Source of the DNA: Puniceicoccales bacterium
Lineage (GTDB): Bacteria; Verrucomicrobiota; Verrucomicrobiia; Opitutales; LL51
NCBI GenBank assembly: GCA_031255715.1
Contig: JAIRRZ010000021.1
Location: 286 to 64,285, forward strand
Direction of reading: 5' to 3'
Length of the DNA stretch: 64,000 nucleotides
Shown: positions 60,483 through 61,396 of the stretch, one piece after another
Numbering within the stretch: position 1 is the stretch's first letter
Layout of the letters: each line of letters starts with the position of its first letter
The notes under the pieces: generated by a model
The model's database searches: none
The model's input: only the letters and a program-made list of their open reading frames with translations
What the model was told of the DNA's origin: nothing
Made by a program: the position numbers and the translations under genes

Positions 60483-60767
60483 TTATTCTTTTATTACGGT
60501 CTGCGATAGCCAACCTTTCTGATGAATCGTATTCCTAATACCAATAGCCGCAGTGTATAAATACACTGCATATAAAATACACTGCTGATATTCTCCAATA
60601 CAAAAATTATGCCACACTAGAACAACATTTGTAAATAACCATAGCACGTAACTTAACTTAAGACGCATTGTCGCATTATAGTACGACCCTAGCAACGCAA
60701 TGACCATTACTACCCATAAAACAATTTGCTTTAACTCTTCAGGAAACCAATTCATAATGCCGCTCAT
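60483..60767 (-). CDS. Three-TM PnuC-like half-size membrane protein
   Basis: YVLWLFTNVVLVWHNFCIGEYQQCILYAVYLYTAAIGIRNTIHQKGW parallels the last three helices of E. coli PnuC (WLLWVIINVISVVIFALQGVYAMSLEYIILTFIALNGSRMW). It overlaps the upstream kinase gene by 29 nt. Confidence 0.55.
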   Translation of the reverse strand: MSGIMNWFPEELKQIVLWVVMVIALLGSYYNATMRLKLSYVLWLFTNVVLVWHNFCIGEYQQCILYAVYLYTAAIGIRNTIHQKGWLSQTVIKE

Positions 60768-61335
60768 AATCTAAATAAACTTTACCACCATCCCCTATGT
60801 GTATTTTACTTTTTAACATATCGCCGTAGGTCAATATTCGTACCCGATCACCAAAATTCCCCATCAGTAAATGTTGGAATAATTCTTCTATCTTTTGAGC
60901 AAATTCCATGTCCGTGTCCCGTACACCATCCATCTGCAATATATTATTGCCTTCATTTTTTACAAAAATAATGTCATCGTAAATGCCTGTCCAAATTTTG
61001 AACGCCTCCAATAGTCCCAATTCAATTTCAGAAATTTTTTCTCCGCGCGTTGCCTCTGAATAGACAAAAGAATCCAATACACCTCGATCCAATACCAAAT
61101 GTTGGTAACCATGAGCAATTGCCTCCAACTCCTTAACCGCTTGCTTCAATGCAATGTATAGCGTGGAATCTACCGTCTGCCCTCGATTAATCGGAAATGG
61201 TGACTCTCGGGCCGTTTCACTTAAAACAATTGCGTTGTAACCGCTCTTTTTCAATTCGGAGCAAATTCGATGGGATAAGGTCGACTTGCCACACCCATGG
61301 GTTCCCGTAATTAAATACCGATGCACTTTTGCCAT
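60739..61335 (-). CDS. P-loop NTPase/kinase of the NadR-like (AAA_28) type
   Basis: Walker A is ITGTHGCGKSTL, and Walker B-like is HLVLDRG. The size is small-kinase. ATG 61335 is preferred over TTG 61365. Confidence 0.55.
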   Translation of the reverse strand: MAKVHRYLITGTHGCGKSTLSHRICSELKKSGYNAIVLSETARESPFPINRGQTVDSTLYIALKQAVKELEAIAHGYQHLVLDRGVLDSFVYSEATRGEKISEIELGLLEAFKIWTGIYDDIIFVKNEGNNILQMDGVRDTDMEFAQKIEELFQHLLMGNFGDRVRILTYGDMLKSKIHIGDGGKVYLDYERHYELVS

Positions 61336-61396
61336 ATCTCTATAGAAGCTACACTTTTTTTTCAAAATGCAACCTATTTATTAATAATTTTTATGC

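Follow-up and report, generated by a model that had tools for sequence, protein, structure and literature searches.

The window analysed here is a 64,000-nt stretch of a contig from a Puniceicoccales bacterium (GenBank JAIRRZ010000021.1), and the locus under study is a two-gene cassette on its minus strand that encodes a P-loop kinase followed by a small membrane protein. The small open reading frame (ORF) is at positions 60483–60767 and encodes 94 amino acids (aa). Its product is a predicted three-helix membrane protein and a putative free-standing, single-repeat member of the Pnu (PnuC) superfamily, here called a 'semi-Pnu'. The kinase gene, at positions 60739–61335, encodes 198 aa of the AAA_28 or NadR ribosylnicotinamide kinase (RNK) type. 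This protein is a kinase domain only; the nicotinamide mononucleotide (NMN) adenylyltransferase (NMNAT) and helix-turn-helix (HTH) domains are absent. The 3' end of the kinase gene overlaps the 5' end of the small ORF by 29 nt (positions 60739–60767, minus strand). Both ORFs and the overlap are present in the ORF listing as described in the original prediction, which was made from the sequence alone. The 29-nt overlap suggests translational coupling of the two genes.

The start sites of both genes require comment. The mechanical ORF listing gives a kinase of 208 aa with a TTG start (positions 60739–61365, minus strand). Since every close homologue of the kinase has 198 aa and begins with MAKVHRY, the start is most likely the ATG at 61335 rather than the TTG at 61365, and the 10-residue extension between 61335 and 61365 is probably untranslated. 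The small ORF has two potential starts. M1 results in the 29-nt overlap, and M5, at position 60755 on the minus strand, gives a protein of 90 aa and an overlap of 17 nt. Both forms are present among orthologues.

Relationship of the small protein to a PnuC repeat

The 94 aa protein matches Pfam family PF04973 (NMN_transporter/PnuC) with E = 0.0025 and a score of 18.3 bits; residues 18–79 align with positions 112–172 of the 175-position profile. From this one sequence the PnuC link is marginal because the score is below the gathering threshold of 27.3 bits, but at the level of the family the link is solid. Fifty-one of 62 family members match PF04973 when scanned singly (E ≤ 0.01, best 2.9e-10), with no other recurring family, and 20 members match phrog_1880 ('PnuC-like nicotinamide mononucleotide transport'). 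The PF04973 match, suggested as a check in the original prediction, is thus sub-threshold for the protein itself and holds for its family. NCBIfam names neither the small protein nor the kinase.

A word-indexed search found nine close relatives of 76–95 aa with 59–89% identity. All nine are annotated as 'hypothetical protein' and come from Puniceicoccales metagenome-assembled genomes (MAGs) or JGI metagenomes. When 1.84 billion cluster representatives were searched exhaustively with phmmer (E ≤ 1e-3), 64 clusters were obtained, all of them 46–131 aa in length except for P0069 (208 aa) and one protein of 150 aa. There is no canonical seven-helix PnuC among the 64 clusters. Judged by these searches, the small family is a sequence cluster of its own, apart from the canonical PnuCs, and the window protein belongs to a broad family of 65–100 aa proteins. 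Nearly all members are labelled 'hypothetical protein' in databases, and a few viral ones have been automatically named 'PnuC'. The family has the consensus ALxGxxLN...GFxxWxxTN...N.xIGEYxQxxLFxxYL....G.

A profile of the family matches the PnuC crystal structure 4QTN with E = 1.5e-6. There are two separate matches on 4QTN, one at residues 41–122 (repeat 1, 12.8 bits) and the other at residues 161–240 (repeat 2, 23.3 bits). Comparison of the family with E. coli PnuC by hhalign shows an alignment to residues 166–232, i.e., transmembrane segments (TM) 5–7, with E = 6e-5 and a probability of only 65%. These alignments establish homology between the small protein and a single three-helix repeat of Pnu, and the best agreement is with the C-terminal one. 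The proposed similarity to the C-terminal three-helix bundle of PnuC is thereby borne out by the position of the PF04973 match, the family hits, 4QTN and hhalign alike.

Three motifs define Pnu transporters in the literature (PMC5749112). The ligand motif WxxW(x)3[D/N] is in TM6, the gates include a tryptophan at the cytoplasmic end of both TM3 and TM7, and tyrosines serve as further gate residues. The 94 aa protein displays a reduced ligand motif, Y40xxW43xxxN47, that aligns with the TM6 motif in the profile alignment to 4QTN. In the family, Tyr or Phe takes the place of the first Trp of the motif, W43 does not vary, and at least 90% of members have N47. The equivalent of N47 in the phage transporter Bas30_87 is N180, a position found within the segment WLIWIAIN of the homologue from Salmonella phage GSW6. 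Mutation of N180 in Bas30_87 impairs function (PMC13464706). A W..N......(x)..G.Y......Y pattern shared with PnuC had been pointed out before; it is only roughly right, and the relevant motif is Y40-x-x-W43-x-x-x-N47 instead.

The protein has three hydrophobic segments, at about residues 15–30, 38–55 and 62–78. An AlphaFold2 model of the monomer, based on a 62-sequence alignment, has a mean predicted local distance difference test (pLDDT) score of 92.4 and shows helices at residues 10–32, 36–57 and 60–80. The two results agree with the three helices predicted earlier for this ORF. In the family, loop 1 and the C-terminal tail have on average 1.84 and 3.07 lysine plus arginine residues, compared with 0.07 in the N-terminus and 0.30 in loop 2. 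From these counts the protein is predicted to have an N-out/C-in topology, which is the orientation of each Pnu repeat. There are only three helices in this protein compared with seven in PnuC, and the architecture of a full-length Pnu transporter is not present. A single three-helix chain cannot form the Pnu pore by itself.

The kinase and conservation of the gene pair

The kinase matches PF13521 (AAA_28) with 50.1 bits against a cut-off of 27, and has the Walker A sequence GTHGCGKST, in which G11, G16 and K17 are invariant. A 25-sequence alignment of the kinase family was compared with other kinases by hhalign. The probability is 90.6% (E = 1.3e-6) for residues 231–380 of E. coli NadR, which represent the RNK domain, and 94.2% (E = 1.1e-7) for residues 165–293 of the NadR-like protein of Salmonella phage GSW6, but only 8% for E. 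coli Tmk. Features in common with the NadR RNK domain are the Walker A sequence, an ExxR motif, a hydrophobic strand with D at its end, and DG[VL]R. The numbering of the GSW6 NadR-like protein is the same as that of Bas30_86, since R167 and K168 coincide; the invariant E69 and the conserved D120 of the kinase family align with E230 and D275 of Bas30_86. Alanine mutants of E230 and D275 abolish NAD+ regeneration in the study of the phage NARP3 module (PMC13464706). A phmmer comparison of the kinase with PDB sequences showed nothing significant. By profile comparison, this AAA_28 protein aligns with the RNK domain of NadR and not with thymidylate kinase, in agreement with the first assignment of this ORF.

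The kinase gene is directly upstream of the small gene in all 11 species-level genomes (10 Puniceicoccales MAGs and one 'uncultured Verrucomicrobia'), and the same arrangement is found in further contigs (L001–L003, L019 and L020). The order kinase, small gene, glyS, a variable gene where present, and mutS is maintained, with an upstream neighbour that varies (lpxB, lptFG or priA). Overlaps between the kinase and small genes are 4–29 nt in orthologous loci and about 19–26 nt in most phage cassettes. The small ORF is 87–96 aa in length and its frame is intact in the 11 species-level genomes and in metagenomic contigs, down to 51% identity. Values of dN/dS, determined by the Nei-Gojobori method with the overlap stretch left out, are 0.10–0.24 for the small ORF and 0.06–0.13 for the kinase, at dS values up to saturation. 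Comparison with orthologues, which had been suggested as a check, therefore shows that the small ORF is under purifying selection. No other PnuC-like sequence is present in the window, including upstream of the small ORF in any frame. In this Puniceicoccales clade the cassette is inherited vertically, as an operon of the chromosome. PnuC-like ORFs of similar size were expected next to kinases elsewhere, and many such ORFs, of 65–100 aa, are indeed found directly downstream of the kinases in the 11 related genomes and in uncultured phages. All computational checks of the original prediction that were run favoured it, and its interpretation is supported.

Homologues of the kinase with about 35% identity are located in phage-like contigs that carry ERF/YqaJ recombination genes, DUF551 and tail-like genes. 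In these contigs the kinase is followed by PF04973-like ORFs of 73–83 aa, usually overlapping. A scan of IMG/VR with the small-protein alignment found six loci, and the kinase is immediately upstream in five of them. When IMG/VR was scanned with the kinase, a small ORF was present just downstream in 12 of 52 loci, including those of all eight closest kinases; a full-length PnuC was not found beside the kinase in any of the 52. Foldseek comparison of the monomer model with viral predicted structures has as its best matches uncultured Caudovirales proteins of 69–93 aa, some of them automatically named PnuC. These have TM-scores of 0.8–0.9 on the target and a root mean square deviation of 1.1–1.9 Å, with E values of 0.03–0.4 that are insignificant for such short folds. 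A tblastn search of GenBank phages with small family members gave no match, and cultured phages have only distant relatives of the kinase. In Salmonella phage GSW6 a NadR-like gene is directly upstream of a full-length pnuC, the same order as that of the kinase and small gene. This pair is the NARP3 module, for which import of nicotinamide riboside and rebuilding of NAD+ against the Sir2-HerA defence have recently been shown (PMC13464706).

A different arrangement is found in a 161-kb phage-like contig (L005:5001–9289). Here a stand-alone kinase gene of the family and, about 2.8 kb downstream of it, a ribose-phosphate-pyrophosphokinase-like gene flank an HD-domain gene. The arrangement is reminiscent of NARP1, a phage pathway for NAD+ reconstitution, and hints that in phages the kinase family may have a role connected with NAD.

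Two loci have the small unit in duplicate. In the 208 aa protein P0069 (L009:4001–4627), two units of the small family are naturally fused in tandem; they share 51% identity over 82 residues. An additional hydrophobic helix comes before each of them (4+4), an arrangement that would keep the two units parallel. The setting of P0069 is cellular, with a response regulator/histidine kinase and an HD protein, and there is no adjacent kinase of the RNK-like family. In an uncultured Verrucomicrobia MAG (L032:5190–5737), two paralogous small genes of 89 aa and about 92–100 aa follow the kinase in tandem, with 52% identity. This pair may represent a heterodimeric version of the system and a step toward a fused full-length transporter. 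Both the fusion and the duplication fit a working unit of two repeats, as in the core of PnuC.

Upstream region and chromosomal setting

The flanking genes in the window are housekeeping genes that encode GlyRS, MutS, PNPase and GlmS. Because of these flanks, the locus is interpreted as a chromosomal operon and not a prophage. The intergenic region upstream of the two genes is at positions 61336–61695 (minus strand). An Rfam scan upstream of the kinase showed no family match, NAD+ riboswitch classes included, and this region has no convincing sigma-70-like site; neither a promoter nor a riboswitch was found there. The only Rfam matches in the window are an ordinary tRNA gene (positions 2428–2501) and a bacterial small signal recognition particle RNA (positions 27066–27164).

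The intergenic region holds a GC-rich palindromic repeat element at about positions 61403–61600, between a 473 aa ORF and the start of the kinase gene. This island is 61.5% GC compared with about 37% nearby, and it is composed of long perfect hairpins. Part of it (61403–61460) is repeated at positions 45043–45131 of the window. Repeats of the island, in either orientation, are present ~150–250 nt upstream of the kinase in the MAG loci L019, L026, L028 and L031, and a further copy is at L019:7107–7133. The element looks like a dispersed palindrome of the REP (repetitive extragenic palindromic) or MITE (miniature inverted-repeat transposable element) type, or a terminator, rather than a riboswitch.

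Three ORFs without a Pfam family are situated amid the conserved housekeeping genes of the window: one of 382 aa (57441–58589) and two of 473 aa (61696–63117 and 48052–49473). The two 473 aa ORFs are mutually unrelated. In related genomes the slot between glyS and mutS is filled by differing genes without annotation, one of 458 aa in L020 and two of 140 and 445 aa in L019. The window also encodes an ankyrin-repeat protein of 706 aa (34637–36757). This protein, together with the source of the related MAGs, suggests a host-associated lifestyle.

A putative uptake-and-trap system and its relation to known systems

It is proposed that the two-gene, translationally coupled operon encodes a minimal uptake-and-trap system consisting of a half-Pnu homodimer and an RNK-type kinase, most likely for nicotinamide riboside. 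We assign this reading a probability of roughly 0.55. The 94 aa Pnu repeat, with its predicted N-out/C-in topology, would most likely associate as a parallel homodimer. The homodimer would rebuild the six-helix translocation path that full-length PnuC makes from two internal repeats. A small uncharged riboside, most likely nicotinamide riboside, could then cross by facilitated diffusion. In the cytoplasm the RNK-type kinase would phosphorylate and thereby trap the import, with conversion of nicotinamide riboside to NMN. From NMN, NAD+ would be made with a host-encoded NMN adenylyltransferase or by a deamidase route, either of them encoded elsewhere. In uncultured phages the mobile cassette would act like a cut-down NARP3 NAD+-restoring module. 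Dimerisation, transport and the substrate are the predicted parts of this model; what the analysis shows is the homology of the two proteins, their conserved pairing and overlap, purifying selection and topology.

Several observations weigh against the proposed system. The Pfam score of the 94 aa protein is sub-threshold, and Foldseek comparison of the monomer model with the PDB gave no hit at E ≤ 0.001, with 4QTN outside the top 50. SemiSWEET and SWEET chains are among the insignificant matches; a three-helix monomer is too simple for this comparison to discriminate. The AlphaFold model of P0069 is poor (pLDDT 73.3, predicted TM-score 0.48) because all homologues aligned to one repeat only, and the best match of this low-confidence model in the PDB has E = 0.3. 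The window protein and its clade have T80 (G76+4) at the position of the cytoplasmic gate Trp, with W86 six residues on; GxxxW is retained in many other small-family members. The family-invariant residues N54 and Q62 have no mapped PnuC counterpart. In a PDB profile search with the kinase, thymidylate kinases (E about 1e-5) are placed above the NadR-like structure 9x6f (2.3e-4). The kinase also has a DR..DS..Y motif that resembles the thymidylate kinase (TMPK) or deoxynucleoside kinase (dNK) type, and its substrate specificity is unsettled by sequence. The NMNAT domain is lacking, no NAD gene is nearby, and Rfam shows no NAD riboswitch at the locus. Forty of the 52 viral kinase loci (L043–L086) are without a Pnu-like gene within 2.5 kb. 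Many phages carry an RNK-like kinase by itself.

Part of this evidence is also compatible with the same architecture, a dimeric half-Pnu channel with a trapping kinase, serving another substrate. A (deoxy)nucleoside, another vitamin or another riboside would then feed nucleotide pools and not NAD+. The matches of the kinase profile to thymidylate kinases (3ld9, 9.8e-6; 2pbr, 6.9e-5) and to deoxyguanosine kinase (about 1e-3) are similar in quality to that with 9x6f, and PHROGs places these kinases in phrog_2107 under the label 'thymidylate kinase'. Besides nicotinamide riboside, thiamine and riboflavin are also substrates of known Pnu transporters (PMC5749112). N54 and Q62 differ from the residues of PnuC, and the cassette has no NMNAT partner. 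Nevertheless, the profile-profile comparison prefers the NadR RNK domain over Tmk, and the DG[VL]R motif and the equivalents of E230 and D275 are those of NadR-type RNK. The ligand motif ends in N, the residue of PnuC, where the thiamine transporter PnuT has D (PMC5749112). The gene order mirrors the phage nadR-pnuC module. Another substrate is considered rather unlikely on this balance. The small protein might also not be a transporter by itself. It could serve to anchor the kinase in the membrane or to regulate it, be a subunit that requires another membrane partner, or be a small membrane protein of phage origin whose role is unrelated. Fold searches with the models are uninformative and give no structural or functional sign of a pore, the gate Trp is absent from the window protein, some family members have no kinase (L009–L012 and L018), and many such kinases have no small protein. 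A mere anchor would not be expected to conserve polar residues within its helices, yet W43, N47, N54 and Q62 are conserved and include the Pnu ligand motif. The family also matches both Pnu repeats, and the tandem fusion and tandem duplication point to a two-unit assembly like that of the Pnu core. SemiSWEETs are viable three-helix homodimeric transporters. That the small protein is not a transporter by itself is regarded as improbable.

The explanation with by far the lowest probability is gene erosion in a reduced genome, by which the small ORF would be the decaying C-terminal remainder of a pnuC that was once full-length. This was raised as an alternative in the original prediction, and it agrees with the best similarity being to the C-terminal PnuC repeat and with the low single-sequence Pfam score. 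It is rejected because the small ORF is conserved with an intact frame of 87–96 aa in the 11 species-level genomes and in metagenomic contigs, is under purifying selection at dS values up to saturation, and is not accompanied by any upstream PnuC-like sequence in the window. None of the orthologous loci has a full-length pnuC, and nearly all of the 64 clusters, which include no canonical seven-TM PnuC, are 65–131 aa.

The putative half-Pnu homodimer with its trapping kinase is of interest for several reasons. A conserved and selected free-standing Pnu repeat makes the idea of a 'semiPnu', as well as the origin of the 3+1+3 fold, testable, and a subunit of 75–95 residues suits structural and transport studies. 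Tandem genes and a tandem fusion are natural intermediates for the origin of transporters with 7–8 helices. The small family also adds data to the debate on whether Pnu and SWEET proteins are related. Many uncultured phages pair it with an RNK-only kinase, which suggests a smaller counterpart of the NARP3 counter-defence module that restores NAD+, and in a host-associated bacterium the pairing of a kinase with a half-Pnu may permit scavenging of NAD precursors. A wider proposal is made tentatively, at somewhat less than even odds: that SemiPnu homodimers are real and form, with an RNK-only kinase, the smallest known cassette for uptake and trapping of a riboside. Such a cassette would be widespread in uncultured phages for a cut-down, NARP3-like NAD+ salvage and domesticated in Puniceicoccales, and the tandem genes of L032 and the P0069 fusion would capture steps from half to full length.

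Comparison with PnuC and other Pnu transporters (PF04973, TC 4.B.1, 4QTN) shows a homologous three-helix repeat, an N-out/C-in topology and a conserved Tyr in the third helix. The TM6 ligand motif is reduced to YxxWxxxN here from WxxW(x)3[D/N]. The small gene adjoins a kinase gene, with which it overlaps in the window and in all orthologous loci, as in the metabolic-trapping model (PMC5749112). The window protein differs in having three helices in place of a seven-helix 3+1+3 core. In its clade the gate Trp is replaced by Thr, N54 and Q62 are family-specific invariant residues, and the family is a separate sequence cluster.

The NARP3 module, which consists of the NadR-like Bas30_86 and the PnuC-like Bas30_87 (PMC13464706), is similar in that the two genes are adjacent with the enzyme first and the transporter second. 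Both systems have an RNK-type kinase domain with E230 and D275 or their equivalents, and a Pnu-type protein with Asn at the position of N180; relatives of the window cassette are common in phage contigs. In contrast, the window enzyme is a kinase domain without NMNAT and would stop at NMN. The putative transporter has one repeat (about 75–95 aa) and not the ~225 aa of a protein reported as a trimer. The cassette is a stable chromosomal operon among housekeeping genes such as glyS and mutS and not a phage gene pair. NARP3 is the closest known system, and the window system is a stripped-down variant of it. The window system would work like PnuC plus NadR, or NARP3, but falls outside both types on architecture, with three helices and a kinase-only enzyme.

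SemiSWEETs have about 90 aa and three TM helices, and they have the same relation to a seven-helix, internally duplicated full-length form. By analogy, a parallel homodimer would be the expected working unit of the small family. None of the 62 family members has an MtN3/SWEET Pfam hit, and no SemiSWEET was found in the PDB profile search. The helix arrangement of SWEET proteins differs from that of Pnu repeats, and homology between the two is disputed (PMC7162841, PMC7176098). The relation of the PnuC fold to SWEET transporters that had been assumed for this locus is under dispute in the literature (PMC7176098), and the family offers no MtN3/SWEET sequence match for it.

The small family may be ancestral, or it may have been secondarily miniaturised, e.g., in phages; its closer similarity to the C-terminal repeat is compatible with either origin. 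A 'semiPnu' from which PnuC could have descended has been put forward as a hypothesis (Jaehme et al. 2015, cited by PMC7162841). Within the searchable literature, a free-standing 'semiPnu' figures only as this hypothetical ancestor. The window protein is just such an entity, a free-standing Pnu protodomain of three helices.

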